A stretch of DNA of 64,000 bases from Candidatus Woesearchaeota archaeon (lineage in GTDB: Archaea > Nanobdellota > Nanobdellia > Woesearchaeales > UBA10216): the NCBI GenBank assembly GCA_016185705.1, contig JACPMZ010000003.1, forward strand, positions 74,900 through 138,899, read 5' to 3'. Both the position numbers and the translations under genes were made by a program. Positions 20,799 through 62,958 of this stretch are shown here, in pieces. Under the pieces are notes generated by a model. The model was not told the origin of the DNA, ran no database searches, and saw only the letters and a list, made by a program, of their open reading frames with translations. Each line of letters begins with the position of its first letter. Positions within the stretch are counted from its first letter, which is position 1.

Positions 20799-21023
20799 AT
20801 GTTGAATACTCCTATGGGCAAGAAATATACCATAATAGTGGAAAAAGACGAAGCTGGTTGGCTGGTCTCTGAAGTAGTTGAACTTCCCGGTTGCCATACC
20901 CAAGCAAAGGATATGAATCAGCTTATAGAGAGGACTAAGGAAGCCATACAAGCTTATCTGGAAAACGGGGAGCAACCCGAAATTTCTGAGGAATTCGTTG
21001 GCGTTCAGCAGATAGAGGTGTAG
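20799..21023 (+). CDS. hicB: HicB-family antitoxin (probable leaderless start at ATG 20814)
   Basis: YTIIVEKDEAGWLVSEVVELPGCHTQAKDMNQLIERTKEAIQAYLE matches HicB/UPF0150 consensus. Confidence 0.8.
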   Translation: MLNTPMGKKYTIIVEKDEAGWLVSEVVELPGCHTQAKDMNQLIERTKEAIQAYLENGEQPEISEEFVGVQQIEV

Positions 21024-39081: not shown

Positions 39082-40076
39082 TAGCCAGAAGCATACAGAT
39101 ACTTGAAAAGCTGCAGCATCCGACAGGGCTGTTCAGCGCGAGCAGCGCTGCCGGAACAGGGTATAACAAGTCATGGATAAGGGATAATGTTTATGCTGCT
39201 CTCGGCTTTGAAGCTGTGAAGGATAATGCTGCGGTGAGGAAAGCTTACCGGGCGATGCTGGACATACTTCTGAAGCACGAATACAAAATAGACTGGATGA
39301 TAAGGCAGCCAACTCCCAAAGAAGCATTCAGGTACATACATGCACGCTACAACCCGCGAACAATGGAAGAGATATATGAGCCGTGGGGCAACAAGCAGAA
39401 CGACGCAGTAGGAGCAGTGCTGTTCAAAATTGGAGAGCTTGAAAGCAAAGGCATCAGAATCATACGCAACAGCAGCGATGTCAGGATTCTGCAAAAGCTT
39501 GTAAATTATCTTGCAGCTATTGAATACTGGCACGACCGCGACAACGGAATGTGGGAGGAAAGCGAGGAGGTGCATGCTTCAAGCGTTGGAGCGTGCGTTG
39601 CCGGATTAAAAATGATTCAGAAAATTGACGGAATTGAGGTTGAGCAGCAGCTGATAAAAAAAGGGGAAGAAACACTGAATGGACTGCTGCCGGCAGAGTC
39701 AGAAACAAAGGAAGCTGATTTGGCATTGCTGTCGCTGATTTATCCGTATAATGTTGTTAATGCAATGCAGCGGGATGCGATTTTAAACAATGTTGAACAG
39801 CAACTTGCCAGGAACAGAGGAGTGATAAGGTACAAAGGCGACAAGTATTACAGCAACGGCTCAGAGGCAGAATGGTGCTTCGGATTCCCGTGGCTCGCAA
39901 TAATTTATAAAAACCTTAACAGGGCTGACAAATACGCATATTACCTTAGAAAAACCCTTGAAATCGCAAACCCGGAGGGAGAGATTCCTGAACTTTACTA
40001 CGGCAACACCGCAGAATGCAATGAGAACTCGCCGCTTGCGTGGGCTCAGTCGCTTAGCGTGGTGGCGAGCGCATAA
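39078..40076 (+). CDS. glycoside hydrolase family 15-like (glucoamylase/glucodextranase-type alpha/alpha6 barrel) protein
   Basis: SWIRDN and GMWEE motifs characteristic of GH15. Confidence 0.65.
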   Translation: MIARSIQILEKLQHPTGLFSASSAAGTGYNKSWIRDNVYAALGFEAVKDNAAVRKAYRAMLDILLKHEYKIDWMIRQPTPKEAFRYIHARYNPRTMEEIYEPWGNKQNDAVGAVLFKIGELESKGIRIIRNSSDVRILQKLVNYLAAIEYWHDRDNGMWEESEEVHASSVGACVAGLKMIQKIDGIEVEQQLIKKGEETLNGLLPAESETKEADLALLSLIYPYNVVNAMQRDAILNNVEQQLARNRGVIRYKGDKYYSNGSEAEWCFGFPWLAIIYKNLNRADKYAYYLRKTLEIANPEGEIPELYYGNTAECNENSPLAWAQSLSVVASA

Positions 40077-40191
40077 ATACGGATGCAAGCTCGCACATTC
40101 TGTTCTTCTGCAATCTTTACTGATTCTTGTTCTGCTGAAAACAGAACATTTTCACAGTTATACCATTGTGGCGGCGATGATTAAAACAGAG

Positions 40192-41901: not shown

Positions 41902-41903
41902 TG

Positions 41904-42881
41904 CTAAAATTCGGACTCCCCGCGATAAAACCTGGCAGCATCCTCGGGCGAGACTGTGTTGATGGTTATGCCGCTTGACAGCTCAAAGCCAGCCCAGTTG
42001 GCTATTCTTGGAGTTACTTCAACATGAAAATGCAGGTCGCTGCCAGCAGGAGAGTAATGCAAAAAATAATTATAAGCAGCGTTCAGCTTTTTCAGCTTCC
42101 TCAAGATGCTTAAAAGGATTTTTGCAAGGGAAGAAAGCTCCTCTTTGGTTAAGTCAGCGAGCGAAGTTACATGCCTTTTCGGAAAAAGCCAGACCTCATA
42201 ATTGAACCGGGAAGCATAAGGCGCAAAGGCAACTGCATCCGCGTTTTCAAAACACCTCCTGAAGCTGCCTTTCTCAATATCAATGATTTTGCAGTACCTG
42301 CACGGCTTTCCGGAAGCATCAGCTTCCTGCTGAACAATCTGCGGAATGAATGCTGTTGCAATAATCTGCGTGTGGCTGTGCTGCAAAGAAGCGCCGCCTT
42401 TGCTGCCGTGATTCTTGAAAATGGCAACGTAATTTATGCTGCGCCTGCCGCTTAACTCAGCAATTCTGCCTTTGTATATGGAAAAAAGCTCAGCTAATTC
42501 AGCGCTGCCCAAATCCCAGAGCTGCTTTTTTTTTGAAGGGGTCTCAACAATAATCTCATGCATGCCAAAAGCATCAGCAAAGGTAAAAAAAGTGTTGTCA
42601 GTCCTTACATCAGGATTGCCGAGAATGTCAACTGCAGGAAACTTGTTTGCAAACCACCTGAAGCGCCATTTCCTGTTTCCAATGCGGCCAATTTCAGCCG
42701 GAGTAAGGTGCTCATTGCCGGGGCAGAAAAAGCACAAGTCCTTCCCGGAGCTGTCAGGTTCACGCAGCTCCTGAGGCCGCCTGCCCCTGCCAGAAGCTAT
42801 AATCACCCAGCGGTCCAGGATGTAGTCTTTTCTCAGCTCCATATTATGCCCTCTCCAAAGCAAGATTGTAGGCGTTTTCAT
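41904..42881 (-). CDS. GalT-like HIT-family nucleotidyltransferase (galactose-1-phosphate uridylyltransferase / ADP-glucose phosphorylase type); likely start MELRKDYI at 42842
   Basis: CFFCPGNE (CxxCxGxE zinc site) and HSHTQ (HxHxQ) active-site motifs. Confidence 0.75.
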   Translation of the reverse strand: MKTPTILLWRGHNMELRKDYILDRWVIIASGRGRRPQELREPDSSGKDLCFFCPGNEHLTPAEIGRIGNRKWRFRWFANKFPAVDILGNPDVRTDNTFFTFADAFGMHEIIVETPSKKKQLWDLGSAELAELFSIYKGRIAELSGRRSINYVAIFKNHGSKGGASLQHSHTQIIATAFIPQIVQQEADASGKPCRYCKIIDIEKGSFRRCFENADAVAFAPYASRFNYEVWLFPKRHVTSLADLTKEELSSLAKILLSILRKLKKLNAAYNYFLHYSPAGSDLHFHVEVTPRIANWAGFELSSGITINTVSPEDAARFYRGESEF

Positions 42882-44613
42882 AATTCTTAATCATGCGCTT
42901 CCAATCAGTCAATGATGCAAGGTGCTTCGCATCTATCTTGTTCTTAATGCGCTCCTGCACGCCAAGCGAGCCATAATCATCCAGGATTTTTGCCAGCGCT
43001 TTCACAACCTCATCATCACCGACTCCAAAGCGCCTGACGACAAAAATGCCGGGAGATTCCTTATCCCGGCTTTGGTCGCATATATACCTCCCGTAGCCCG
43101 AAAGGTCAGTGGTTACCGAAGCCACCCCCAATGCAGCAGCTTCAACCGGAGTATAGCCCCACGGCTCATAGAAGCTCGGGAACACCCCCAAATGCGCGCC
43201 CTGCATTGCCTCGTAATAGGACAGGTCCAGCAAGCCATCCGAGCCAGTCAGATAAATAGGATAGAATACCACCTTAACCCGGTCAGCCTTCCTGTTCAGC
43301 AGGCCGGAAGCCTTAAAAGCATTAAATATCTGGTCAGAATCCTCGCTATGAACAGTATGCGTGGACAAAGGAGGAACCCCTGCCCGCTTAAACCTCAACA
43401 GCTTCTTCCTAACCTCATCAAGCAGCGAAGGACCAAGAAGATAGCTTTCATCGCAGGTTGACTTTGACGCAATCATGGACGTCAAAAGCCGCTCCATTAA
43501 AACTTCGTGCTCGTCTGTAATTGAATCCTTCACATCCTTAAAAAAAGACTTGTTTTCAGTCAACTCCGGCCTAATCTCCCCAACATTTCCCGGAACCCAG
43601 AAAAAAGCAACAATGGTTTTGCTGGACTTCCGCGCCTTCAGCTTCCGGTTCAGGTCGCCCAAAGCCCTTATGAAGATGTCAATGCCCTTTGCCCTGAACT
43701 CATACCTGGAAGCAAGGAAGTAAATCAGCGTGTCGTCAATGTCAAAGTCATAATACGGGAAAAAGTAGTAAAGCAAAAACTCCTTAATCTTGCTTTTGTA
43801 CAAGCGGTGCTTTATTGAGGCCTCCTCAAATGTCGGAAATTTGCCTGTATTAAGCCCGTTTGGCAGCACAACATCAACTTTTCTGCCCAAAAATTTTTCC
43901 GCCTCAATTGCCGTAATAGGGCTTACTGTCGTAAAGACATCAGCATTCTTTGCCGCCTGCTCCTCAATCTGGTGCTTGGGCAACATGCTCGTGCGGTACT
44001 CGGGCTTGCCGAGGTCAGCAGAAAACTTTGCATCATAAATGTCAAGCCCTGCGCCGGCAAAGCTCCTGCCCAAAACAGTTGCGTGGGTAGTGAAAACAGA
44101 GGCAACATTCGCCTTTCTGCCTTTCAAGTAAAGCAAAGCAGCGCCAGCCAGCCACTCATGGCAGTGCGCAATGGCCTTTTTGCCTTTTGAAAATTCTTCC
44201 ACAGCCATGCCTGCAGCATAAGAAAAAATAACAGGCTCGTCAAAATCAAAGTAAGAGGTGTACAGGGAATCTATCTTAAACATGTCCCATAACTCGGCCT
44301 TTACAAAGTCCTTTCTTGCAGTAAAACCGCTGAAGTCCAGGAGAATTGCACTGATTTCCGTGTCTGTAAGCCACTTGCCAAAATGGCAGACAATACCCTG
44401 CTCCTTCAGCCTGTTAAATGCGGCGTTAAACTCGTGGGGAACCGGCTCCTCAATAAACTCTGACCTGTGCTTATCGGGAAAATAAGGACCTATGGCAAAG
44501 TATTTCTCATAGCGGTCCCTGACATCAGCGGATTTGCTCTTAATAACAGTGTAAATGCCGCCTACCTTGTTGCAAACTTCCCAAGAAATCTCAAACAAGT
44601 ACGTGCTGCTCAC
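42844..44613 (-). CDS. glycogen synthase, GT3 (eukaryotic-type) family
   Basis: N-terminus FEISWEVCNKVGGIYTVIKSKS matches GT3 glycogen synthase signature (EVSWEVANKVGGIYTV). Confidence 0.8.
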   Translation of the reverse strand: MSSTYLFEISWEVCNKVGGIYTVIKSKSADVRDRYEKYFAIGPYFPDKHRSEFIEEPVPHEFNAAFNRLKEQGIVCHFGKWLTDTEISAILLDFSGFTARKDFVKAELWDMFKIDSLYTSYFDFDEPVIFSYAAGMAVEEFSKGKKAIAHCHEWLAGAALLYLKGRKANVASVFTTHATVLGRSFAGAGLDIYDAKFSADLGKPEYRTSMLPKHQIEEQAAKNADVFTTVSPITAIEAEKFLGRKVDVVLPNGLNTGKFPTFEEASIKHRLYKSKIKEFLLYYFFPYYDFDIDDTLIYFLASRYEFRAKGIDIFIRALGDLNRKLKARKSSKTIVAFFWVPGNVGEIRPELTENKSFFKDVKDSITDEHEVLMERLLTSMIASKSTCDESYLLGPSLLDEVRKKLLRFKRAGVPPLSTHTVHSEDSDQIFNAFKASGLLNRKADRVKVVFYPIYLTGSDGLLDLSYYEAMQGAHLGVFPSFYEPWGYTPVEAAALGVASVTTDLSGYGRYICDQSRDKESPGIFVVRRFGVGDDEVVKALAKILDDYGSLGVQERIKNKIDAKHLASLTDWKRMIKNYENAYNLALERA

Positions 44614-44690
44614 TCATCTCAACCCCTTTTCCCAGAATAATTGGCAGATTAGTATAAAATTCTATTGTTTTTTGGTAAAGCCAGGTTAAG

Positions 44691-44940
44691 TGCCAAAACC
44701 GTGCGCACACTGCGCAGATTTTTTTCTCTTTTCAGAAATTCAGCTCTGTTCTTTACTCCGCGCTTCATCTCCACCTCCCTTAATTTTTGAAGGGAGGTGG
44801 AGATGAAGCGCAATGGCAGCTTAAGCATGCGGTTTTTCGGAGATACCCAGCTTAGAAAGGAAAAAAACAGCCAAGCAGGCATCGGCAAGCTGAGGATTGC
44901 AGGGCATGCAAAACTTTACATTACTGCCTGCCCTGATTAT
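44691..44940. mobile_element. degenerate/composite MITE-like copy C (left arm ggtaaagccaggttaagtgccaaaaccgtgcgcacactgcgcag; right arm cagccaagcaggcatcggcaagctgaggattgcagg...acattact) interrupted by a different hairpin (44757-44810, cgcttcatctccacctccc TTAATTTTTGAA gggaggtggagatgaagcg)
   Basis: arms homologous to copies A/B; central segment replaced/inserted. Confidence 0.5.
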
Positions 44941-45021
44941 AGTCAGAACATAGTGCTAAAAGAAAAAGTTTAAATACAATCAGTGCAATAAAGCTGGCGG
45001 GGTTCTAAAGAGGAAGGCGAA

Positions 45022-45330
45022 TTGAGAAGAACATTTTTGCAATTAAGGGAGCACATCCTGAGGGCATTGCTTGAAGGCCCTCTGACAATAAACCAGGTTG
45101 CCTGCAGGACAGGCATCAACTGGCGCACTGCAAAGCACCATCTCGAATTCCTTAAGTATAGAGGCATGGCAGCCGAGGTAGTAAGCTCATCCTATGTTAA
45201 GATATACAGGATAACAGAACAAGGCGGAAGCAGTTTCCCTGTGAAGCAGGCAGTAAAACGCGAGGCATTAGAAGTTGAGATTACACTTAATGGGAAGTCC
45301 CGCGAACTTGAAAAGGTGGAAATAAGATGA
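45022..45330 (+). CDS. winged-helix transcriptional regulator (ArsR/TrmB-like), 4-bp overlap with GT4 gene
   Basis: LTINQVACRTGINWRTAKHHLEFLKYRGMA HTH + wing. Confidence 0.55.
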   Translation: MRRTFLQLREHILRALLEGPLTINQVACRTGINWRTAKHHLEFLKYRGMAAEVVSSSYVKIYRITEQGGSSFPVKQAVKREALEVEITLNGKSRELEKVEIR

Positions 45331-46523
45331 GGGTGCTGATGTTTGGCTGGGAGTTCCCGCCTTTCAGCTCAGGCGGCCTGGGGTCAGCGTGCTATGGCCT
45401 TGCAAGAGCATTGAGCAGGGAGAATGTTGACATAACATTTGTGCTCCCGCAGGCAAACCCCATTGAATATGATTTCATGAAGGTAATAGCTGCCAACATA
45501 CCAAGACTCAAGCTGCGCGGCATAAAGTCCATGATAAGCGGATATGCAACTTCGCATGAATATGAGCAAAAAATTTTTCAGATGAAAATGAAAGCAGACC
45601 CTTCACTGGAAATTTACGGCCAGAACCTTATTGAAGAAGTTGAGAGGTATGCGAACAAAGCGGCGGAAATTGCCAGGGAGGAGGCGCACGACTTAATTCA
45701 CGCGCACGACTGGCTTACATTCAAAGCAGGCATAGCAGCAAAAAAAGCGTCAGGAAAACCGCTGGTTGTGCACGTGCACGCAACCGAATTTGACAGGACA
45801 GGAGGGCATGGAGTGAACCAGTACGTGTATGACGCGGAAAGGGAAGGCATGCATGCTGCAGACGCAATAATCGCTGTCAGCAACTACACCAAATCAAAGA
45901 TAATCCGCTACTATGCTGTAAGCCCTGAAAAAGTGCACGTTGTGCACAACGCCATTGACATTGACAGCACAGCAGCAAACCCGCAGCACAAAACAGGCAA
46001 GGTGGTGCTGTACCTTGGAAGGGTAACGCTGCAGAAAGGCCCGGACTATTTTGTTGACGCTGCGAAAAAAGTGCTGGAAAAAGAGCCTGATGCAAGGTTC
46101 ATTATCGCAGGAAAAGGCGACATGGAAACACGCCTTATCAACAAGGCAGCCAGCCTCGGCATATCTGACCGGGTGCTGTTCACAGGATTTTTGCGGGACA
46201 GCGACATAGCAAAGGCATACAGCATGGCAAGCTTGTATGTAATGCCCTCAGTTTCAGAGCCATTCGGAATAACTCCGCTGGAAGCAGCAGGCAACTGCAC
46301 GCCTGTTATGATATCAAAGCAGTCAGGCGTTTCAGAAGTATTAAACCACTGCCTTCGCGTTGACTTCTGGGACGTCAATGAAATGGCAAACAAAATACTG
46401 GCAGTGCTGCATCACAGGGAGCTGCAGGAAGCTCTTACAGAAAACAGCTTCCGGGAAGTCAGCCGAATGAGCTGGGCAAGCTCAGCCAAAAAATGCATGC
46501 AGGTATATGAGGCAGTGAAATGA
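45327..46523 (+). CDS. glycosyltransferase family 4 (retaining GT-B)
   Basis: EPFGITPLEAAGNCTPV (E-x7-E) motif; GT-B two-domain architecture. Confidence 0.8.
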   Translation: MRVLMFGWEFPPFSSGGLGSACYGLARALSRENVDITFVLPQANPIEYDFMKVIAANIPRLKLRGIKSMISGYATSHEYEQKIFQMKMKADPSLEIYGQNLIEEVERYANKAAEIAREEAHDLIHAHDWLTFKAGIAAKKASGKPLVVHVHATEFDRTGGHGVNQYVYDAEREGMHAADAIIAVSNYTKSKIIRYYAVSPEKVHVVHNAIDIDSTAANPQHKTGKVVLYLGRVTLQKGPDYFVDAAKKVLEKEPDARFIIAGKGDMETRLINKAASLGISDRVLFTGFLRDSDIAKAYSMASLYVMPSVSEPFGITPLEAAGNCTPVMISKQSGVSEVLNHCLRVDFWDVNEMANKILAVLHHRELQEALTENSFREVSRMSWASSAKKCMQVYEAVK

Positions 46524-46572
46524 GGCAGAGGAGCCAGCCAGGGCACAAAAGCTGACGACACCCAAAAATGAG

Positions 46573-46689
46573 GCTATGCCAGCTTTTGCGTGTTTCGCTG
46601 CCCGCTTTTTATTCCCTCCCTCGCAAATTAAGGGAGGGAATAAAAAGCGGGCGAGGCAGCGGAAAAAACACACTTAACTTGAAATTACC
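46573..46689. mobile_element. MITE-like copy D (reverse orientation) with CCCTCCC hairpin 46597-46653, flanked by 13-bp direct repeat acccaaaaatgag (46560-46572 / 46687-46699)
   Basis: right end cacacttaacttgaaattacc = reverse complement of family left TIR; exact flanking duplication. Confidence 0.65.
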
Positions 46690-46750
46690 CAAAAATGAGA
46701 AGATTTAAAAATTGCGGAATACACATTAAAGCACTTAAAGAGGGCGGGGT

Positions 46751-47953
46751 ATGGTAAGCGTATGCTTTTATTTCCAGGTGCATCAGCCAGAGCGGATAAG
46801 AAAGTACTCTGTCTTTGAGGTCGGGAAGAGCGCTGACTATTTCTTCCATCAGAAGAACAGGGAAATAATAGAACGGGTTGCAAAGAAATGCTACCTGCCG
46901 GCAAACGCGATAATTCTGGAACAGCTGAAAAAGCATGGCAGGCTTAAAGTTGCCTATTCTTTCAGCGGCGTCGTGCTTGAGCAGCTGGAGAAATACGTTC
47001 CCGAAGCAATCAGCTCTTTCCAGAAGCTTGCAGACACAGGAAAGGTTGAAATACTCGACGAGACCTACTACCACTCGCTGGCATTCCTTTATTCAAAAAA
47101 AGAGTTTTTTGAGCAGGTGAGAATGCACAGGCGCAAAATAAGCGAGCTGTTCGGGCAAAAGCCAAAAGTGTTCAGGAATACTGAACTGACGTACAACAAT
47201 GAGCTGGCAGCGACAGCAGCAGAGATGGGATACAAGGCAGTGCTGGCAGAGGGAGCAGACCACATACTCGGCTGGAGAAGCCCGAATTTCGTCTATAAGC
47301 CGGTAACTGCAGACATAAAGCTGCTGCTCAAGAACTACCGGCTCTCAGACGACATAGCATTCAGGTTCAGCAACCATGACTGGAAGCACTGGCCCCTTAC
47401 CGCAGAAAAATTCGCGTCCTGGGTGAACAGCATAAACGGGAACGGAAACTGCGTAAACCTGTTCATGGACTATGAAACATTCGGCGAGCACCAGTGGCCT
47501 TCAACAGGCATATTCAATTTCCTGAGAGCAGTGCCAGGCGAAATACTAAAGCATCCGGACAACGATTTCAGGACGCCAACTGAGATTGCAGAATTCAAGC
47601 CAGTCGGAGAGCTTGACGTGCCATTCACAGTCTCGTGGGCTGACGTGGAGAGAGACCTGAGCGCGTGGACTGGAAACAAGATGCAGCAGGCCGCACTGCA
47701 GAAAATATATGAAATGGAAGCCGCAATAAGGGGAAGCGGCAGCAAAAAGCTTATTGAAAACTGGAGGAAGCTCCAGACATCAGACCACTTCTACTACATG
47801 TGCACCAAGTGGTTCAATGACGGAGACGTGCATAAGTATTTTAACCCCTACGACTCGCCGTATGATGCGTTCATAGCATACATGAACATAATAAGCGACA
47901 TCAAGCAAAAGCTTAAACCAATTGAGGAAGCAATACCAACAATAATGAGGTGA
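46751..47953 (+). CDS. glycoside hydrolase family 57 (alpha-amylase/alpha-glucan-processing)
   Basis: FQVHQPER (HQP motif) and GH57 N-terminal barrel signature. Confidence 0.8.
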   Translation: MVSVCFYFQVHQPERIRKYSVFEVGKSADYFFHQKNREIIERVAKKCYLPANAIILEQLKKHGRLKVAYSFSGVVLEQLEKYVPEAISSFQKLADTGKVEILDETYYHSLAFLYSKKEFFEQVRMHRRKISELFGQKPKVFRNTELTYNNELAATAAEMGYKAVLAEGADHILGWRSPNFVYKPVTADIKLLLKNYRLSDDIAFRFSNHDWKHWPLTAEKFASWVNSINGNGNCVNLFMDYETFGEHQWPSTGIFNFLRAVPGEILKHPDNDFRTPTEIAEFKPVGELDVPFTVSWADVERDLSAWTGNKMQQAALQKIYEMEAAIRGSGSKKLIENWRKLQTSDHFYYMCTKWFNDGDVHKYFNPYDSPYDAFIAYMNIISDIKQKLKPIEEAIPTIMR

Positions 47954-47957
47954 TTTT

Positions 47958-48281
47958 ATGGGAAATAGAAAGAATGAGGAGCCGGTCAGCAAAAACATTA
48001 CTGAACTGGCAATACTGAGGTTCATGGAAGCGCCGAGCGGCAAGCAGTTTGTGCTGAATGACGGACGTCTGCTGAAAAATATCAAGGAACTGGCTGATGC
48101 GCTTGAGCACATGAGCGATGACGTATTCAAGCATCATGTTGCTCCCGGAAAAAACGATTTCAGCATCTGGGTGAGCGAAGTGCTGCAGGAAAATGACTTG
48201 GCAGACGACTTGACTGCTGTTGACAATCAGTTAAAGGCGCAATTGGCGGTGCTGAAGCACATAGCCAAGAAAGCATTTTGA
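47958..48281 (+). CDS. paralog 1 of a three-member tandem family of small proteins with conserved F..HH(V/A)..G(K)NDF..WV core; function unknown
   Basis: FKHHVAPGKNDFSIWVSEV; 5-nt gap after GH57 gene. Confidence 0.55.
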   Translation: MGNRKNEEPVSKNITELAILRFMEAPSGKQFVLNDGRLLKNIKELADALEHMSDDVFKHHVAPGKNDFSIWVSEVLQENDLADDLTAVDNQLKAQLAVLKHIAKKAF

Positions 48282-48282
48282 G

Positions 48283-48597
48283 GTGAAAAAAATGAAAAAA
48301 GACAAAGCGAATGAAGCCAGAAAGCTTCTGAGCAACGTAGAGCACTGGAAGGCATTCTGGGTGAACAAGGGACCCATATACAGGAATATTGCGGAGTTTG
48401 GGGCCAAGGTGGGAAACCTGAAGCCAGCCCAATTTGCGCACCACGTAAACAAAAGCAAGAACGACTTTGCAAAATGGGTGGATGAGGCAATCGGAGACAA
48501 GGTGCTTGCGAAAAGGCTGCGCAGCCTGAAAACAAAGCAGGCAATAGCCAGAGTGGTATCAGAGCGGGTAAGCGCGCTGAAAAAGCTTGCAAAATGA
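48283..48597 (+). CDS. paralog 2 of tandem small-protein family
   Basis: FAHHVNKSKNDFAKWVDEAIGDKVLAKRL; starts 2 nt after paralog 1. Confidence 0.55.
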   Translation: MKKMKKDKANEARKLLSNVEHWKAFWVNKGPIYRNIAEFGAKVGNLKPAQFAHHVNKSKNDFAKWVDEAIGDKVLAKRLRSLKTKQAIARVVSERVSALKKLAK

Positions 48598-48950
48598 ACC
48601 TGAGGAACAACGTAAGCCCTGAACACAGGTTTTACTGCGCTGACGGCAGCACCTTCCAAAACCTGAACGAGCTTGCATCCGGGCTGAGAAAAATGCGGCC
48701 CGAAGTATTCCAGCACCACGCAAACGCAGGCAACAATGATTTCCGCAACTGGGTGCGGGATGTGTATGGCAACAAACAGCTTGCAGACCAGATTGCCCGG
48801 GCAAAACTCAGCCTGGAAGCATCGCAGATAATAGCCAGGAAGCTGAATACAACCGGGAAGCGGGCAAAGCGCGCAATGAAAAATGAAAGACTGCATAAAA
48901 AAATCCACAAACACATAATGCGGCTTATGAGCAAATACAGGAAAAAATAA
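48594..48950 (+). CDS. paralog 3 of tandem small-protein family with extra basic tail
   Basis: FQHHANAGNNDFRNWVRDVYGNKQLADQI; ATGA overlap with paralog 2. Confidence 0.55.
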   Translation: MNLRNNVSPEHRFYCADGSTFQNLNELASGLRKMRPEVFQHHANAGNNDFRNWVRDVYGNKQLADQIARAKLSLEASQIIARKLNTTGKRAKRAMKNERLHKKIHKHIMRLMSKYRKK

Positions 48951-50885
48951 TTACTCTTTCAGTTCCCGAATTACTTCTACAACACCCGCAGAACACGGAT
49001 TTTTGGTTACATGGTCTGCCACTGCCTTAAGCTCCTTATGCGCATTTGCCACCGCAATCCTGTAACCAGGAACATTAAAAAGATCCACGTCATTCTGCGC
49101 GTCACCCATTATGATAGTTTTCTCAGGGTCAATATTCAAGTGGTTTAAAGCCATCTTTGTTCCAGCACCCTTATCAACACCACTCGGCAAAATCATGAAT
49201 TCACCAACATTATATTTGTAAGCAAGATGCTTGCTCAAAGGCCTGAGAATCTTCCTGACCTTTGCACTCTCCTTCCGGGGAACGCTGATGATGTTGAGGC
49301 CTGAGGTATGCTTTATCCTGGCGCCGGCAATCAGCCTTGCAGCGCGCCTAACCGTATTTGAAGAAAAAGTAATGAGCTGGTCTTTGGCAGGAATGTAAAT
49401 AACTGCGCCATTCTCTGCAACAATGCACTTCCACACGGGATATTTCCTGTACAGCTTGTGGACATACCTGAAAGGCCTTCCTGTCACGAGCACCAAAGGA
49501 ACTTTGAGCGATTTCAACTCCGCAATGACCTTGGCATTGACTTTCCCGGGAGCGTCTGTAATTGTCCGGTCAAAATCGGTTATAAAAGCATTGACATCCT
49601 TCAGATTCATCATCCTGGGCCCCCAATCGCTTTTGCTGCCGAGAATCCTGTGGTAAAGCATAATGTGCTCCTCAACTATCCTGCTCATTGAGAATTTTTC
49701 CTGCACAATCCTCAAGCTTTCCTGCCCCATCCTCTCATTGAGAGAGCTGTTGGTGAGAAGCTTTACAATAGCGCCAGCAGTCTCCCTGATGTTATCCACG
49801 CCCACCAAAAACCCATTAACCCTGTCCTGTATCTGCAAAGGAATTCCGCCTGCATCAGTCCCGACAACCGGCTTTCCGCAAGCCATAGCCTCAGTAACCG
49901 CAAGCCCAAAGCCCTCAATCTTTGACGTCAAAGCAGCAACATCAGCACACGCATATACAGAAGGCAGCTCATCATATGGAATTGTTCCTGTAAAAACAAT
50001 ATGCTGCTGCAGCTTCAACTGCCTGATGAGAGTGTGCACAGCATCCTCATACTTCTTGCGGATATCGGACATCTTGCTTGTCAATGACCTGCCGCCAACA
50101 AAAACCAGCTTTGCATCCGGAACTTTCCTCAGGATATAGGGCATTGCCCTGATAAGCTGCTCATGGCCGCTTTTGATGTCAATCCGCTGCGCAGACAATA
50201 TTATTTTGCACCTTTCCAAACCAAATTTTCTCTTAAACTCCGGATTTGGCCTTGTGGGAACAAACAATTTTGTGTTGGCAAGAGGGTAAAGAAGAGCTGT
50301 CTTTTCCCTTGGAAGCCCTGCCTTAACAGCATTCCTGACATATTCCGGCGATGAAAAGACAACACAGTCGTATTCAACCATCTGGTTTATCAGGAATTCC
50401 TTCAAATGCCTGGGCATAGCGCTGATGAAAGGAATGTGCCACCTGAGAAACAACGGAGTTCCGCGGGGAATGCCCTTGTACAAATACAGCAACTGGAAGT
50501 CATGAATGTCAACAATCTCAGCAGGCTCCTTCTGCAAAAGCTCATCCAGCTGCTCGGCAATAGCTTCATTAATCTCCATGTATTCCCTGAAGCCGGGCAT
50601 GTCGATTGCTTCCCTGTCAAAGCCGCCAAAGCCGTGGCACGCATTCCAGACGCTTTCCTTGAATTTCACAAAGCCCTCTATAAGCTCATCCTTTAAAGGC
50701 TCTTTCGGAACCCGGTAAACATTTATGCCCTTAACCTCCTCAAACGCCTCAGCACCGGAAGGCCGCAGGTGAATCTCAGCAACCTCGTGGCCGCGCTTCT
50801 GCAGCTCCCGGCCAAGATTCAGAAGATAAGTGGAAACGCCCCCGATGTTCGGATAAAAAGACTGCGAAGCAAAAAATATTTTCAT
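48951..50885 (-). CDS. bifunctional-type GT4 glycosyltransferase fused to C-terminal HAD-IIB phosphatase domain (sucrose-phosphate-synthase-like / glycoside-compatible-solute synthase-phosphatase architecture)
   Basis: GT4 EGFGLAVTEAMACGKPVV; HAD motif I ITDFDRTITD and motif IV GDAQND in C-terminal 230 aa. Confidence 0.75.
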   Translation of the reverse strand: MKIFFASQSFYPNIGGVSTYLLNLGRELQKRGHEVAEIHLRPSGAEAFEEVKGINVYRVPKEPLKDELIEGFVKFKESVWNACHGFGGFDREAIDMPGFREYMEINEAIAEQLDELLQKEPAEIVDIHDFQLLYLYKGIPRGTPLFLRWHIPFISAMPRHLKEFLINQMVEYDCVVFSSPEYVRNAVKAGLPREKTALLYPLANTKLFVPTRPNPEFKRKFGLERCKIILSAQRIDIKSGHEQLIRAMPYILRKVPDAKLVFVGGRSLTSKMSDIRKKYEDAVHTLIRQLKLQQHIVFTGTIPYDELPSVYACADVAALTSKIEGFGLAVTEAMACGKPVVGTDAGGIPLQIQDRVNGFLVGVDNIRETAGAIVKLLTNSSLNERMGQESLRIVQEKFSMSRIVEEHIMLYHRILGSKSDWGPRMMNLKDVNAFITDFDRTITDAPGKVNAKVIAELKSLKVPLVLVTGRPFRYVHKLYRKYPVWKCIVAENGAVIYIPAKDQLITFSSNTVRRAARLIAGARIKHTSGLNIISVPRKESAKVRKILRPLSKHLAYKYNVGEFMILPSGVDKGAGTKMALNHLNIDPEKTIIMGDAQNDVDLFNVPGYRIAVANAHKELKAVADHVTKNPCSAGVVEVIRELKE

Positions 50886-54602: not shown

Positions 54603-55094
54603 TTAATCAGAAAGAATTTCCTCTCTGGAAATTATGATAAGGTTATCCTTCAACTCCATCTCATCAATAAGCTGCTCAACCTGTGACTTACTAAGAATTT
54701 TACCTGCCCATAAATGCCTGAGAACTGAATTCAGAGAAATAACTGCAATGCCCTCCCTCTGACAAAAATTGATAATCTTTTTTTCATTAGTAACAACAGC
54801 AGCTTTTCTGCATTTGGCTATTGAAGCAGTATCTCGCTCACCACTACCGAAACTTTTTGGGAGAGTGCCCGCATATGCTGATTCGTTATCCGACATCTGC
54901 ACAACCCTGATTTTGCCTTTCGCAAATATAGAATATACAATTTTGGCATGGTCGTAACCCAACTCTTTTGCTTTCTTCACTTCACTTAGTACATTTGGAG
55001 AAACAACCAGATTGTCGCCCAGAGCTTCAAATAACAACCCCAATCTTCCGATTTTACCAAAAGTGGAAAGAATGTTAGTGTCAAGAAGAATCAT
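54603..55094 (-). CDS. PIN-domain protein (VapC-like toxin)
   Basis: MILLDTNIL start; acidic residues in PIN positions. Confidence 0.8.
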   Translation of the reverse strand: MILLDTNILSTFGKIGRLGLLFEALGDNLVVSPNVLSEVKKAKELGYDHAKIVYSIFAKGKIRVVQMSDNESAYAGTLPKSFGSGERDTASIAKCRKAAVVTNEKKIINFCQREGIAVISLNSVLRHLWAGKILSKSQVEQLIDEMELKDNLIIISREEILSD

Positions 55095-55432
55095 CCGCTC
55101 CTTCTCCTAATACGTAAAAGAGTTGCTCCTCTATTAATTTCCTCTTTGGATTGGGGAGAAACTTTTATACGAATCTTTCTGTCAACCAACACATCCTTAA
55201 ACTCCTCAAAATTCATACAAGCAATCTCAGCGGCCTTGCTCAGAGTAACTTCCCCCTTCTTATACATTTCAACAGCTGCCGCCAGCCTCAGGTGAGTGTT
55301 ACCTTCAAAAAGCGATCTCAATGCATCCCTAACAACCTCGGACTTATTGGAGTAATAACCCGCATCAATAACTGCCTCAATCTCATCGTCGTACATTTTT
55401 GGAATACTAAACGCACTTGGCATATTCATCAC
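55091..55432 (-). CDS. UPF0175-family putative antitoxin partner of the PIN protein
   Basis: AAAVEMYKKGEVTLSKAAEIACMNFEEF matches UPF0175 core; ATGA overlap with PIN gene. Confidence 0.6.
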   Translation of the reverse strand: MMNMPSAFSIPKMYDDEIEAVIDAGYYSNKSEVVRDALRSLFEGNTHLRLAAAVEMYKKGEVTLSKAAEIACMNFEEFKDVLVDRKIRIKVSPQSKEEINRGATLLRIRRRSG

Positions 55433-55921: not shown

Positions 55922-56119
55922 ATGGTAGAAGCAACTTTTGAAAAACAAGTAATAGATAAATTAGAGCATATGGAAAAAAATATCAACTACATAAAGGAAC
56001 ATATTGAAGATTCAAGATTGAGTAATGAAGAAAAACAACTATTAGAAGAAAGTTATGAGAGCGAGAAAGAAGGAAAACTAGTTTCTAGTAAAGATTTAAG
56101 GAAGAGCTTGGCACAATGA
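55922..56119 (+). CDS. hypothetical small acidic coiled-coil protein (65 aa)
   Basis: ORF only. Confidence 0.3.
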   Translation: MVEATFEKQVIDKLEHMEKNINYIKEHIEDSRLSNEEKQLLEESYESEKEGKLVSSKDLRKSLAQ

Positions 56120-56175
56120 GTTTTAACATTGGTTATGATAATCAACCAGAAAAATTCCAAATTAAACAGCTTATA

Positions 56176-56889
56176 TCAATTTTTTGCAGCAGTGATTTTT
56201 TTAAACAGCTTTTCCTCATCCACCCTAACACCCAATTTACTGAAGAACTCGCCGACATTGTGAATGTCGCGCTTCAGCATCGCAGCTGAGTTTGGCGAAC
56301 GCAGGGGGGATGCCTGAGAGAAATCAATGAAAACAGGCGCTTCGTTGCGGTTGAGGATGTTGAACTTTGACAAATCACCATGAACGTAACCGCTCCTGTA
56401 GAATTTCTTCATGTTGAGGATTATGCCATCAAAGAACTCCTGCGGTCTCTCCGGAATGGCATCCTTTATTTTTTGGGCTGGCTGCGCGTCTCCGACCGAA
56501 CTCATTACCATAATGTTTTTCATAAACGCAATGGGAACAGGCGCTGCTACATTTGCTCTTTGCGCAGCCATCAGATTGCGGTACTCCCTCTGGGCCCAGG
56601 CGAAAATGATAGCGCGCTTCCGCTTGGCAAGCCCCTCATACCTTGGATCAGACCTGATGTAGTCAAACATCTTCTTGAAGTCTGCTGTTTCAAGGCGGTA
56701 AATCTTCACGATGACTTTTGTGCTTCCCCTTGAAGCTGAGAAAACATTGGCCTCCTTGCCTATTGACAGCGGGCTCAATGAGCCATCCTCAAAAATGTCC
56801 TTGCTGCTGAGGACAAAAAGGTTTCTGATTGTAAACTGGTCAAACACGTCCTCCTCAGTCTTAAACCGCTCGCGGAATTTTTTGGCCAT
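56176..56889 (-). CDS. rio1: RIO-type serine/threonine protein kinase (Rio1-like, no N-terminal wHTH)
   Basis: VKIYRL (VAIK-like), YVHGDLSKFNIL catalytic loop, IDFSQA (DFG-like). Confidence 0.85.
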   Translation of the reverse strand: MAKKFRERFKTEEDVFDQFTIRNLFVLSSKDIFEDGSLSPLSIGKEANVFSASRGSTKVIVKIYRLETADFKKMFDYIRSDPRYEGLAKRKRAIIFAWAQREYRNLMAAQRANVAAPVPIAFMKNIMVMSSVGDAQPAQKIKDAIPERPQEFFDGIILNMKKFYRSGYVHGDLSKFNILNRNEAPVFIDFSQASPLRSPNSAAMLKRDIHNVGEFFSKLGVRVDEEKLFKKITAAKN

Positions 56890-57018
56890 GACTTTATCCT
56901 GCCTGCATTATTTTTCCTATCCTGCTGCCTCCTCAACTCAGCAGATGGGAATGAATCCAGTTGCGGGAGCACTGACAGTTTATAAAACTTTATAAAACGG
57001 GCAAAAACAGCATTTGAT

Positions 57019-57747
57019 ATGGATGATATTAAGCTGGTGCTGGTAAGCGGCGAAGGAAAACACCTGCATGTCAGGGACGTTCAGCACGATTACCACTGCC
57101 AGTACGGCATTGTCAAAAAAGGCGATTTGAAATCAGGAATTGTTAAGACAAACACCGGAAATACGTTATTTGCATTTCAACCAAGCTTCATTGACAAGTA
57201 CAAAAAAATAAGGCGCGCTCCCCAGATAATACCATCCAAGGACATTGGCAGCATCATAGCAGAAACAGGCGTCAACAAAGAAAGTTTTGTAGTTGATGCA
57301 TGAAGCGGGAGCGGCGCATTAGCCGTATTTTTGGCCAACATAGCAAAAAAGGTCGTGAGCTATGAAGTCAGAAAGGATTTTGCAGCGGTAGCTGCGGAAA
57401 ACGTAAAGCTTCTTCAGCTGAAAAACATCTCAATCAAAATCAAGAATGTTTATGACGGCATTGAGGAGGAAAACGCGGACCTGATAACTTTTGACCTGCC
57501 AGAGCCGTGGAAGGCGCTTAAAGCTGCCGAAAAGGCGCTGAAAGTCGGAGGATTTATTGTTTCGTACTCGCCCACAACATCGCAGGTTTCAGATTTCGTC
57601 AAAGCAGCCAAAAACACCAGCCTGCTGCACATGAAAACCATAGAAATCATACAGCGCGAATGGGAGTTTGACGAGCGCATTGTAAGGCCAAAGTCGCAGC
57701 CGATAGGGCATTCAGGGTTTATAACGTTTTTGCGCAAAATAAGTTAA
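57019..57747 (+). pseudogene. trmI: tRNA (adenine57/58-N1)-methyltransferase TrmI/Gcd14 homolog interrupted by in-frame TGA (57301-57303) at the conserved Gly of SAM motif I; annotated by ORF caller as two ORFs (57019-57303 and TTG-started 57331-57747)
   Basis: ...SFVVDA-TGA-SGSGALAVFLAN... versus TrmI consensus VvEaGtGSGaL; both parts in same frame. Confidence 0.7.
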
Positions 57748-57799
57748 AGCAATGAATAATGCCAGTGCAGCAGCAGGAGCGATAACATTGTAAGCGGCT

Positions 57800-58984
57800 T
57801 CATATTATGTCCTCCTTAACAACTTCTCCGGGCAGGGTTGTTTTGTCCGGCCATATCTTCCTGCCGGGATAAACTGACGTGCGGATGCCTGTCTTAACGT
57901 TATCGCCTATGGCTGTGCCAAACTTTCTGGTTGCAGTGCCTGTTAATTGACCGCTTACCCTTGACCTAACCTCTTCATTGTCATGGCGGAGATTTGCAAC
58001 AATAAAACCAGCTCCGAGATTAACATTCTCCCCAATGACAGAATCGCCGACATAGCTTAAGTGCGCAACGTGCGAGTTATCCATAACTATGGAATTTTTA
58101 ATTTCAACAGCATTTCCAATCCTGCAGTTGTCGCCAATGGACGTTGAAGCGCGGATGTAGCAGTTAGGGCCTATGTCGCAGTTCTCCCCAATTATCACAG
58201 GGCCTTCAATGTATGTGCCGCTCCTTAACAGCGTGTTTTTGCCCACAACAACTTTTCCCTTAATTGTAACGTTTTCCTCAACAGCTGAGGCAACATCCCC
58301 TTCAATATTGTTAAGCAGTTCCTCGTTTGCTTCCAGCAGAGACCACGGATAAGTTATGGGAATCCAGCTATCAGCTGTTTCCACAACTATTTTTTCCTGC
58401 TTTGCCAGAGATTTTACTGCATCTGTCAATTCGTACTCGCCGCGGGAGCTTTTATCAAGCTTTTCAATAACAGGAAATATTTTTCTGTCAAGAACGTAAA
58501 GCCCGGTATTGGCAATGCCCGTTGTCGGAGCTGCCGGCTTTTCCTTCAAGTCAATGAGTCTGCTGCCATCAGCAACTATTTCGCCGAACATGGCAATGTC
58601 CTTTACCTTCCTGCCGCTAATGCACAAATCATGCTTGACAGCTGCGGCAATAGCATCCCTGCTGTAAATGTCATCACCCATCAAAACAATGAATTTATCA
58701 TCCAAAAGCTTCTCAGCAGCAAGCAAAGCATGGGCCGTGCCTGTTTGCTGCGACTGCTCAATGAACGTCAGCTGAATATCAGCGAAGGCACTGCCAAGGT
58801 AATCGCTTATCCTGCTGCCTTCATGGCCGATGACGATGATAGCTTCATCCACAATGCCCCGCAGCTGGGAAAGCGTGTGCTCAATCACCGTTTTATTGGC
58901 TACTTTGAGCAAAGGCTTTGGCCTGTTAACTGTCAACGGAAAAGTCCTTGTGGATCTGCCAGCAGCCAGAATGACAGCTTTCAT
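57800..58984 (-). CDS. glmU: bifunctional sugar-1-phosphate nucleotidyltransferase / hexapeptide-repeat acetyltransferase (archaeal GlmU-like)
   Basis: N-term MKAVILAAGRSTR (G-x-G-x-R nucleotidyltransferase P-loop); C-terminal left-handed beta-helix hexapeptide repeats (IGENCDIGPNCYI...). Confidence 0.8.
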   Translation of the reverse strand: MKAVILAAGRSTRTFPLTVNRPKPLLKVANKTVIEHTLSQLRGIVDEAIIVIGHEGSRISDYLGSAFADIQLTFIEQSQQTGTAHALLAAEKLLDDKFIVLMGDDIYSRDAIAAAVKHDLCISGRKVKDIAMFGEIVADGSRLIDLKEKPAAPTTGIANTGLYVLDRKIFPVIEKLDKSSRGEYELTDAVKSLAKQEKIVVETADSWIPITYPWSLLEANEELLNNIEGDVASAVEENVTIKGKVVVGKNTLLRSGTYIEGPVIIGENCDIGPNCYIRASTSIGDNCRIGNAVEIKNSIVMDNSHVAHLSYVGDSVIGENVNLGAGFIVANLRHDNEEVRSRVSGQLTGTATRKFGTAIGDNVKTGIRTSVYPGRKIWPDKTTLPGEVVKEDII

Positions 58985-60264
58985 TTTCCAACCTCTGCCT
59001 TAACAGCGTCTGCTATCCTTCCAGCCAATTCATTTATGCTGCCTTTGCCTTCCACCATGATGCGAAGCACGTTTTCAGTGCCCGAATAGCGAACAAAGAC
59101 CCTGCCCTGTTCCCCAGCTTCCTTAATTTTTTCCATAACATCAGGTATTGATTCCAGCGGCTTCTTTTCCTTAACAGCAACGTTAACAAAAACTTGCGGG
59201 TATTTTGCAATAATCCCTGAAAATTCAGAAAGCTTTTTGCCGAAACCAAGGATTTGGATAGCAGCCAACAGCGCATCAGCAGACCTTGCAAACTCAGAAA
59301 AAATGTAATGGCCTGAGCTTTCGCCGCCAAAACTGTAATTGTTGGCGAACATTTCTTCAGCCACCAATTTATCGCCGGTATTAACCCTTACGACTTTAAT
59401 ATCGTGTTTGCCTAAAGAATCGTCAAGCCCGGAATTGCTGTAATCAGTAACCACGATGGCGTTATTGCTGAGCCTGCCTTTTTCCTCCAGATTAACAGCG
59501 ATTGCAGCCATTACAGCATCAGAATCAACAACATTGCCCTGCTCATCAATCACTACAAGCCGGTCAGCGTCGCCGTCAAAGGCAATTCCTGCATCCAGCT
59601 TATTTTCTTTCACTATTTTTTGCAGCTGCTCAGGATGCATGGCACCGCTCTCATTTATGTTGCTGCCGTCAGGATGGTTGCCGATGACAGTAACGGATGC
59701 ATCCAGCTTTTCAAAAACTTCTGCTGCAATGAAAGAGGCAGAGCCATTGCCGCAGTCAATGCCGACTTTCAATCCCTGCAGGTTTCCGCTGCTTACCAAA
59801 AATTCCTTGTAAGCCCCGTAGCTTTCCAGACTGCGCTCTTTAGGCCCTGCGCCAGCCGCTCTGAAAGATTTTGATGCAAGTATGGCTTCAAGCTTTTCCT
59901 GCTCATCGTCAGAAAACTTAAATCCGCTGCTGCCAAAAAATTTAAAGCCGTTCTCATCCGGAGGATTGTGCGAAGCAGAAATCATAATGCCGCAAGCAGC
60001 TTTCTCATTCATTACCGCGAAAGAAACAGCATTGCTTGGAACGACTCCGAGCAGCAGCGCTTCGCCTCCGGAATCAATTATGCCTTTCGCCAAAGCAGTT
60101 TGCAGAGCTTTTCCTGATGACCTCGTGTCCCTGCCGATAATAATTTTCGGAGTTTCAGAATCAGCAAGCGCAACGACTGCTTTTCCCAATTCAAATGCAA
60201 AGCCCTCAGTAACCGGATGCTGATTTGCCTTTCCACGGATTCCGTCGGTGCCGAAAAGAGTCAT
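58981..60264 (-). CDS. glmM: phosphoglucosamine mutase / phosphohexomutase
   Basis: GIMISASHNP active-site serine loop; MTLFGTDGIRG N-terminus. Confidence 0.85.
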   Translation of the reverse strand: MTLFGTDGIRGKANQHPVTEGFAFELGKAVVALADSETPKIIIGRDTRSSGKALQTALAKGIIDSGGEALLLGVVPSNAVSFAVMNEKAACGIMISASHNPPDENGFKFFGSSGFKFSDDEQEKLEAILASKSFRAAGAGPKERSLESYGAYKEFLVSSGNLQGLKVGIDCGNGSASFIAAEVFEKLDASVTVIGNHPDGSNINESGAMHPEQLQKIVKENKLDAGIAFDGDADRLVVIDEQGNVVDSDAVMAAIAVNLEEKGRLSNNAIVVTDYSNSGLDDSLGKHDIKVVRVNTGDKLVAEEMFANNYSFGGESSGHYIFSEFARSADALLAAIQILGFGKKLSEFSGIIAKYPQVFVNVAVKEKKPLESIPDVMEKIKEAGEQGRVFVRYSGTENVLRIMVEGKGSINELAGRIADAVKAEVGK

Positions 60265-61994
60265 TTCACTGTCACCGCTTTTGCCAAGTTACGCGGATAA
60301 TCCGGATTCAGCCCTTTAAGCAAAGCCAAATGATAAGCCAGCATCTGCACAGGAATAATGTTTACAATAGGAGATGCGTTGCCTGCATCAGGCACTTTCA
60401 GCCAGTAATCAAACGCCTCGTTGTTTTCCGGAGCTATTCCAATAATGAAGCCGCCTCTTGCTTTTATTTCCATGGCGTTGCTAATCATCTCTGCCTTAAC
60501 GCTGTCATTGGCGACCAAAGCAATGCACGGCGTTCCCTCATCAATCAGTGCAAGCGGGCCGTGCTTAAGCTCGCCGGCGGCAAAGCCCTGGGCGTTTATG
60601 CAAGCTGTTTCCTGCAGCTTAATGGCTGCTTCCAGAGCCATTGGATAATTGATGCCCCTTCCAATAATGTACATGTCGCTTCTTTCTTTCAGCATCTCAG
60701 CCAATTTTTTTATGTGTTCCTCGTAGCGCGGGTTAAGCATATCATTAACCTGCTCAGCCACATTCAAAAGCAGCAGCTTGCCTTCCTGAAGCTTTCCGAT
60801 GGAAGCGTAAGCCAAAAGAGTAACGACTGCGAGCTGCGCTGTTGTTGCCTTTGTTGACACAACAGCGCGTTCAGCGCCTGCATTAACCATGAAGTACTGG
60901 TCAGAAGCGCGCATCATGGTGCTGCCGAAAACATTGAGCAGCGAGATGACTTTGGAGCCGCTTTTTTTGGCTGCGTCAATCGCCTCAAGAACATCTGCTG
61001 TTTCCCCGCTCTGCGAAACAGCAATTATCAAAGACTTTGGCGTCAGGTAATGGCTGTAGTTGGGGAATTCCGAGGCAACGTAGGAATTCACGTGCTTTCT
61101 GGCAACTTTAGAAAAAAGGTACTCGGCAGCCATGCATACTTTTCCTGCGGTGCCGCAGCCAACAAGGAAAGTGCCGTACGCGTTATTAATATCAGCTGCC
61201 ACTGACATGATTTTTGACTCATCCTGATTAATGGCTTTGTAAAGTGTTTCTTTCTGGTCCATAATCTCCTTAATCAGGTAATGCTCATAGCTGCCCTTCT
61301 CTGCTGATTCAGGCTGCCAGTCAATTTCCACAACTCTTTTGCTTACTTTTTCACCGCTGTCAATGCTGTAAAAATGAGCCGCTTCATCAATTATTACCAG
61401 CTCGTTATCGTCAAGGTACTGAACATTCTTTGTGTGATTGAAAAACGCGCTTATGTCGGAGGCAATGAAAAACTCATCCCTGCCGATGCCTACTATGAGC
61501 GGAGCTCCTTTTCTTGCAGCAGCCAGCCTGTTTTCATACTTCGCAACAAAAGCTGAGCGGCCCTTCAGCAGCTTAGCAGCTTCCTTAATTGCCTGCTCAA
61601 AGCCAATGGAAAGCTTCTCCTCAATAAGGTGGGAAACCGTTTCAGAATCAGTGTCAGACGCAAAGCGGTGCGAGCTTAAGGAAGCTTTAAGCTCCTGATA
61701 ATTCTCAACAATGCCGTTGTGAACAACAGCAACCCTTCCTGAGCAGTCAAGATGGGGATGCGCATTCTGCCAGGTAACAGGGCCGTGGGTGCTCCAGCGG
61801 GTATGGCCAATCGCAATGCTGCTCGGGCTTATGACAACGTTGCCGCTTTCGCCAATCCTGCCAACCCTCTTAACAACCTCAGAGCCAGTTGCTATTCCCC
61901 ACGAATCATAGCCGCGGTACTCAAGCGCCTTCAAGCCATCCAAAACGACCTTAGAAGCGTCTTTCCATCCCTTATAAGCAATTATGCCGCACAT
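60261..61994 (-). CDS. glmS: glutamine--fructose-6-phosphate aminotransferase (isomerising)
   Basis: MCGIIAY N-terminal Cys nucleophile; two SIS domains; 577 aa. Confidence 0.9.
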   Translation of the reverse strand: MCGIIAYKGWKDASKVVLDGLKALEYRGYDSWGIATGSEVVKRVGRIGESGNVVISPSSIAIGHTRWSTHGPVTWQNAHPHLDCSGRVAVVHNGIVENYQELKASLSSHRFASDTDSETVSHLIEEKLSIGFEQAIKEAAKLLKGRSAFVAKYENRLAAARKGAPLIVGIGRDEFFIASDISAFFNHTKNVQYLDDNELVIIDEAAHFYSIDSGEKVSKRVVEIDWQPESAEKGSYEHYLIKEIMDQKETLYKAINQDESKIMSVAADINNAYGTFLVGCGTAGKVCMAAEYLFSKVARKHVNSYVASEFPNYSHYLTPKSLIIAVSQSGETADVLEAIDAAKKSGSKVISLLNVFGSTMMRASDQYFMVNAGAERAVVSTKATTAQLAVVTLLAYASIGKLQEGKLLLLNVAEQVNDMLNPRYEEHIKKLAEMLKERSDMYIIGRGINYPMALEAAIKLQETACINAQGFAAGELKHGPLALIDEGTPCIALVANDSVKAEMISNAMEIKARGGFIIGIAPENNEAFDYWLKVPDAGNASPIVNIIPVQMLAYHLALLKGLNPDYPRNLAKAVTVK

Positions 61995-62314
61995 AAAGAC
62001 TCACTGAAACAACCATGGCAGCCGCTTATTAAAGGCAGCTGCCACAGAGGTGTTCATGCTGCTTAAGGTAGGCATGCATATATAAAAGCATTATTAAAAC
62101 AATGTTATTACTATTATAAATAAAATTATAGTTTTTGGTTGCGAAAGTTTTATTAAGCCCATTCACATACCGCATGCATGCGCTACATCCACCAAATAGT
62201 GAGCAATGACATAATGCTGATGCTTCTCCTCATCATGCTGACGGTTATTATCATTGTGAACAGCAGCTCTGTTCCGTAGGGTCAATGCTATCCGCTGCCC
62301 CTTTCCCACAACAG

Positions 62315-62364
62315 CGCTTTATTTTCTCCGCCCTTAACTTTAGGGGAGGGGAGAAAATAAAGCG
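62315..62364. repeat. hairpin of family (cgctttattttctccgccc TTAACTTTAG gggaggggagaaaataaagcg)
   Basis: perfect ~19-bp stem with GGGAGGG core. Confidence 0.7.
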
Positions 62365-62397
62365 CGGAACAAGATATTAGCATTCGAAGGAACTTGC

Positions 62398-62958
62398 ATG
62401 AAAAAAGAAATAAGACTTCTTGGAATCGACGATGCGCCTTTTGACAAGTTCAAGGACAAAAAAACACTGATAGTCGGCGTTTTTTTCCGGGGCGGAGGCA
62501 GCGTGGATGGAATACTTTCGGAAACTGTTGACATAGACGGAAGCGATGCGAGCGAGAAAATCATTGAGATGGTGAACCGCAGCAAGTTCAGGACGCAGCT
62601 GAGGGCTATAATGCTGAAAGGAATAGCATTCGCAGGCTTTAACCTCATAGACATTGAAAAAGTCAGCAAAAAAACAGGAATACCTGTAATAGTGGTAATG
62701 CGGCGGCTGCCCGACAAAGAAAGAATCGGACGCATACTTGCAAAGCTGCGCAAAGAGAGCAGCATAAAGCTGATGGAAAAAGCAGGGCAGATAAGCAAAG
62801 CAGGCGCCATCTACATTCAGTTCAGCGGAACAACGCCTGAGCAGGCAAAGGAAATAATCAGGATAAGCAGCAGCCGCGGAAACATTCCTGAGCCAATCAG
62901 AGTAGCGCACCTGATTGCAGGCGGGGTTAAGCTCGGGCAGAGCAGGGGGAAGGCGTGA
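62398..62958 (+). CDS. DUF99/UPF0215-family archaeal protein
   Basis: MKKEIRLLGIDDAPF... typical N-terminus of the DUF99 family. Confidence 0.6.
   Translation: MKKEIRLLGIDDAPFDKFKDKKTLIVGVFFRGGGSVDGILSETVDIDGSDASEKIIEMVNRSKFRTQLRAIMLKGIAFAGFNLIDIEKVSKKTGIPVIVVMRRLPDKERIGRILAKLRKESSIKLMEKAGQISKAGAIYIQFSGTTPEQAKEIIRISSSRGNIPEPIRVAHLIAGGVKLGQSRGKA

Follow-up and report, generated by a model that had tools for sequence, protein, structure and literature searches.

The trmI gene in a 64-kb stretch of DNA, referred to below as the window, is interrupted by a TGA codon in an otherwise open frame, and the question raised by this locus is whether the codon is read as an amino acid, is a genuine nonsense mutation, or is an error in the sequence. 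The reading frame runs from an ATG at 57019 to a TAA at 57745-57747, with the TGA at 57301-57303 as its sole internal stop. Around this codon, the sequence GTA GTT GAT GCA TGA AGC GGG AGC GGC GCA (57289-57318) translates as V V D A (stop) S G S G A. As a consequence of the internal TGA, mechanical ORF calling gives two pieces of 94 and 138 amino acids. No second, compensating copy of trmI was found in the 64-kb window. The coordinates of the features are collected in Table 1.

Table 1. Position of the features discussed, numbered along the window
Feature	Position	Strand	Remarks
trmI (archaeal tRNA m1A57/58 methyltransferase, Gcd14/TrmI family)	57019-57747	+	One in-frame stop
In-frame TGA, codon 95	57301-57303	+	T57301 private to the window
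Motif I of the class I SAM methyltransferase fold, D-A-[G95]-S-G-S-G-A-L	57295-57321	+	First Gly of GxGxG replaced by the stop
Product of the TGA allele, 94 aa	57019-57303	+	N-terminal domain only, without the SAM-binding fold; from the ORF list
ORF of 138 aa starting at TTG	57331-57747	+	3' remainder of trmI; from the ORF list
31-mer of the T allele at 57301	57301		TAGTTGATGCATGAAGCGGGAGCGGCGCATT
Private doublet	14361-14362		Adjacent sites of a single codon, GT in the window; the codon is read as Val here and as Thr in the contigs
Private sites	16754, 16772		Both synonymous, 18 nt apart; G and C, respectively, in the window
Private site	20415		Intergenic; C in the window
Private site	22406		R/Q change; one covering contig
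Private site	48018		Synonymous; one covering contig
GDE_C amylo-alpha-1,6-glucosidase	40192-41901		
GalT-like gene	41904-42881		
Glycogen synthase-like GT	45327-46523		
GH57	46751-47953		
Fusion of 644 aa	48951-50885		GT4/TreT-like plus S6PP/Hydrolase_3 phosphatase domain

When glycine was placed at the stop, the trmI product had 242 amino acids and matched Pfam GCD14 (PF08704) with 67.1 bits against a cutoff of 26. Residues 5-241 aligned to the TrmI structures 3lga and 3mb5 of Pyrococcus abyssi with an E value of 3e-48, and the TrmI enzymes of Thermus, Aquifex and Mycobacterium also matched the 242-aa product, at 1e-18 to 1e-28. Both marks of membership of the TrmI family, the family profile and the full-length structure match, are thus found in the window frame. 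The likeness to the P. abyssi enzyme (PDB 3lga, 3lhd and 3mb5) comprises the N-terminal domain and the class I SAM methyltransferase fold, with motif I (xDAGxGSGAL) and the DLPxPW motif common to both. In the structure alignment, the TGA codon faces the first G of VEAGVGSGAL, so that the window copy differs from P. abyssi TrmI in having a stop for the first glycine of motif I (Gly101, counted from the alignment). P. abyssi is a hyperthermophile, whereas the host of the window would be a mesophilic groundwater DPANN archaeon, in which the role of TrmI is predicted from sequence.

In the alignment of the family, residues D93, A94, G95, G97, S98, G99 and L101 were invariant, as were D159, L160, P163 and W164, and E116 was nearly so. 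The window frame retains E116, D159, L160, P163 and W164 downstream of the stop, including the acidic residue of motif II and the D-L-P of motif IV. As motif I is absent from it, the 138-aa remainder would be inactive even if it were translated. Of the 120 closest homologs in the database, every one had glycine in the column of codon 95. A survey of 80 trmI loci from GTDB species representatives (53-74% amino-acid identity) gave a glycine codon at the equivalent of codon 95 in 80/80 cases (33 GGC, 26 GGA, 14 GGT and 7 GGG), a count that is only partly unbiased, as one of the two peptide search patterns required the glycine. None of the 80 loci had an in-frame stop anywhere in trmI. The placement of the stop at the motif I glycine of TrmI by the first-pass annotation was therefore accurate. 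Many of the GTDB records with a Woesearchaeota-type trmI are titled 'uncultured Methanosarcinales archaeon' (loci L027, L037, L038, L040 and others), and the title 'Candidatus Aminicenantes bacterium' was found on the record of locus L040; such titles probably reflect placeholder or incorrect taxonomy, or bin contamination, in public records.

An in-frame TGA at a glycine position is what would be predicted if UGA had been reassigned genome-wide to glycine, as in genetic code 25 of Absconditabacteria (SR1) and Gracilibacteria, or to another amino acid, and the sole in-frame TGA of the window does fall at such a position. This was examined by comparing ORF statistics under alternative stop sets and by scanning for frames that stay open across TGA. 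Under the standard code (code 11), 51 complete non-overlapping ORFs cover 87% of the window, and TGA is the commonest of their ends (21, against 18 for TAA and 12 for TAG). Seven of the 21 TGA ends lie in ATGA four-nucleotide start/stop overlaps (11279-11282, 23073-23076, 39078-39081, 45327-45330, 55091-55094, 58981-58984 and 60261-60264), which are a standard mark of a genuine terminator. The TGA codons at 18465-18467 and 46521-46523, cited as ordinary stops in the first-pass annotation, do end the ORFs 14238-18467 and 45327-46523. Standard-code gene calls on independent contigs gave matching gene boundaries.

When ORF pairs in one frame with a single TGA between them were sought, no other TGA-interrupted gene was detected in the window; the many conserved genes broken by TGA at glycine codons, which had been put forward as the sign of genome-wide recoding, came down to trmI alone. 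The remaining TGA-joined frames lay on the strand opposite real genes or overlapped them in a different frame. Code 25 would call for a tRNA-Gly with anticodon UCA; in the 64-kb window, the part of the genome that was examined, no tRNA genes were found. The likeness to code 25 is thus limited to the in-frame UGA, which stands where glycine is conserved, whereas here UGA is the most frequent true stop, a single gene is affected and the sister alleles described below have GGA; moreover, the hosts of code 25 are CPR bacteria and the host of the window is an archaeon. Genome-wide reassignment of UGA is refuted within the window, and as an explanation of the trmI stop it is hardly credible.

The frame at 1-8796 (+), which is nearly free of TAA and TAG and has many TGA codons at a spacing of 237 nt (79 codons), was considered as a recoded gene and rejected: its translation makes no sense, and the frame is antisense to an ORF on the minus strand that has at least 2905 amino acids. 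This ORF (1-8715, minus strand) extends past the start of the window, and only weak Ig-like matches (Big_13, Big_7 and Big_3) were obtained for it, at residues ~1500-1780. The 237-nt spacing of TGA on its antisense strand hints at an internal repeat that was not reported by Tandem Repeats Finder. Its antisense frame illustrates how such a sequence can mimic a recoded gene.

The ancestral state of codon 95 was read from near-identical sequences. A protein search returned a 242-aa protein (P0001) that is 100% identical to the trmI product, with the stop codon as the sole exception, and keeps the glycine at position 95. Eight independent Logan contigs of groundwater metagenome origin encode the intact protein. 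Six of them (L001-L006) were read as DNA; these come from six runs of two run-accession series (SRR12113431, -383, -385, -422 and -420, and SRR4343428). These six contigs are 99.75-99.99% identical to window positions 55969-62747, and all of them have GGA at codon 95, where the window has TGA. In L002 (6779 bases), L004 (4482) and L005 (3534), T57301G was the only difference from the window. As GGA is found in all six contigs, it is both the prevailing codon and the ancestral one, from which the window departs by a private G-to-T transversion.

The TGA therefore arose by one G-to-T substitution at 57301, private to the window, and the GGA-to-TGA origin that had been offered as one of several explanations is shown directly by the six near-identical contigs. 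An uninterrupted frame with an intact motif I is absent from the window copy and present in P0001 and L001-L006. The trmI sequence 3' of the stop is the same as in the intact alleles, no decay having accumulated yet. Three polymorphisms were found in trmI among the Logan contigs, all of them synonymous, and together with the invariant Gly95 they indicate that the gene is normally kept functional.

Among relatives that bear a name, Candidatus Woesearchaeota MAGs are the nearest, and many of them come from the Modesto site. As context only, run SRR12113421 of the SRR12113xxx series, which is not among the runs that yielded contigs, is described as a groundwater metagenome from Modesto, California, in He et al. 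2021, as quoted by 10.1101/2024.02.19.580942. Four independent Logan contigs end exactly at window position 55969. This breakpoint falls in the segment 55433-56175. Upstream of it the sequence is AT-rich, has no ORFs other than small ones, and adjoins a UPF0175/ParD-like antitoxin gene (55091-55432), whose partner of 163 aa lies at 54603-55094. The segment may be strain-variable or repeated, and may break assemblies for that reason.

The UGA could also be read through, or decoded as glycine or another amino acid, at this site only, giving a full-length and possibly regulated TrmI. The frame does stay open and is perfectly conserved 3' of the stop, and the 106 nt of trmI mRNA from about the stop onward (57295-57400, plus strand) fold with -33.9 kcal/mol, above the stability of shuffled controls (z = -3.0). 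However, the same population elsewhere has GGA followed by an identical downstream sequence. The downstream structure has therefore not evolved for readthrough, and the fold, being shared with the GGA alleles, is no evidence for recoding; it is probably ordinary mRNA structure. Nor is the stop conserved among the relatives, all of which have GGN and an uninterrupted frame, which speaks decisively against programmed recoding. No Rfam match, SECIS or other, reached the gathering score in the window, and none appeared in 56900-58100 even at E <= 1. Trp, Cys or Arg are the residues added by near-cognate readthrough at UGA codons, and Gly is not known to be among them. In P. abyssi TrmI the GxGxG backbone packs against the homocysteine moiety of SAM/SAH (PMC2952851), so that a protein with one of these insertions would probably be inactive. 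With TGA as the most-used stop, no other gene interrupted, and the stop absent from the sister contigs and the 80 relatives, the programmed readthrough or glycine recoding suggested in the first-pass annotation was rejected, and a site-specific event of this kind is very improbable.

Insertion of selenocysteine at the UGA has the codon itself in its favour and nothing else. The lack of a SECIS or other Rfam match stands against it, as do the identity of the aligned residue, which is an invariant Gly and not Cys, and the glycine of the sister alleles. It is refuted for practical purposes, its probability being negligible.

T57301 may be either a real allele or an artefact. As an artefact it would stem from an error in sequencing, assembly, polishing or curation, or from a minority base or a damaged one that became fixed in the consensus, and the organism would have an intact GGA trmI like the other copies. 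The private variation of the window bears on this choice. The background divergence was obtained from 19 further Logan contigs retrieved around five other window genes, which brought the total to 25 contigs covering 37,026 positions of the window. The runs that gave contigs were SRR12113383, -384, -385, -420, -422, -424, -430, -431 and -433, and SRR4343428. The window differed from all covering contigs at eight nucleotides, 57301 and seven others (Table 1). The clustering of these sites and the three synonymous changes look like natural strain divergence, not random error. They suggest that the window represents a distinct sub-strain, with small recombination tracts possible in the 1409-aa gene.

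The 1409-aa protein (14238-18467, plus strand) gave Big_5, CBM30 and weak GH44-like matches, and a 1393-aa protein (27506-31687, minus strand) gave no Pfam match; both are probably DPANN surface proteins. Gene calls on contig L016 placed small toxin-antitoxin-like genes at 20230-20900, with a DUF4258 protein and a weak HicB-like antitoxin, between the genes for a Na+/H+ exchanger and a short-chain dehydrogenase. A carbohydrate gene cluster of glycogen/trehalose type occupies 39078-50885. Within it, on the plus strand at 47958-48950, small genes coding for 107, about 101 and 118 amino acids follow one another in tandem. These three may be paralogs or parts of a single gene; DUF5752 matches, weak or faint, were obtained for the first two, and the segment is the same in Logan contig L009 bar one synonymous site.

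Private variation in the window amounts to about 2 per 10 kb, and consensus error in short-read assemblies is expected to be far rarer than this, which favours a real allele. The natural appearance of the seven other private differences, clustered and with three synonymous changes among them, mildly favours the same reading over an artefact. No frameshifts or other broken genes were found in the window, which argues against an error-prone assembly. On the other side, all eight other contigs that encode the protein are intact, the six read as DNA have GGA, and the TGA-truncated product has no record. The change is also a lone G-to-T transversion without neighbouring private variants, and it strikes an invariant, indispensable residue, a change that selection does not normally tolerate; nonsense changes in conserved genes are a class removed by selection and not avoided by errors. 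T57301 is isolated, no other private change being found within about 6.8 kb, and this isolation, together with the undecayed downstream sequence, is equally compatible with a consensus error.

Sequence collections were also searched. The exact 94-aa product had no record in a collection of 153 billion genes, and a 36-mer over 57301, with either base, was absent from the genome and JGI metagenome contig collections. The other private protein variants of the window had no record in the collections either, indicating that the window genotype is absent from them. As the genotype lies outside those collections, the missing 94-aa fragment and 36-mer are uninformative. On this evidence we lean towards T57301 being a real, very recent null allele of the sub-strain represented by the contig; an artefact is a distinct possibility, though not the probable one.

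If the allele is real, the G-to-T change at 57301 would convert GGA (Gly95) into a TGA read as a normal stop, in what appears to be a Woesearchaeota-like DPANN archaeon from groundwater. Translation would end after 94 residues, and the product would lack the whole methyltransferase fold. Archaeal TrmI makes m1A58 as well as m1A57, an obligatory intermediate on the way to m1I57 (PMC4191401; PMC2952851), so that cells with the TGA allele would be expected to lose m1A57/m1A58, and hence m1I57, in the T-loop of their tRNA. Such a loss would probably be tolerable at groundwater temperature and mildly deleterious, as trmI is otherwise under purifying selection. A trmI disruptant of Thermus thermophilus is viable and does not grow at 80 C (PMC6313347), and its viability implies that, where an aquifer is cool, a trmI null could be maintained for some time. 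That the TGA allele is real and partly read through, or has reached an appreciable frequency in the population, is improbable.

The trmI stop resembles natural nonsense alleles and young pseudogenes in its single point change to a standard stop, in the dominance of the wild type and in the lack of secondary decay. It does not differ from them in kind; what is particular is that the codon of an invariant glycine in the SAM motif is affected. The archaeal trmI is otherwise standard, and its stop is either an ordinary nonsense point mutation or an error in base calling, not a new kind of feature. Annotators should mark the gene as a pseudogene or as possibly containing a sequence error. Its TGA should not be counted as a stop-codon reassignment in DPANN archaea, and the value of the result lies in averting a false claim of recoding; comparison with independent assemblies at the population level can settle the choice between recoding and mutation in one step.

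If real, the allele would amount to a knockout of trmI that arose naturally in an archaeon not yet cultivated, and would be mildly informative on whether m1A57/58 is dispensable at low temperature. Were a real allele also partly read through, or kept at an appreciable frequency, T-loop m1A57/58 (and m1I57) methylation would be a polymorphic trait of a free-living DPANN lineage, and this natural knockout would mean that archaea in cold groundwater can dispense with a tRNA modification that is nearly universal among archaea.
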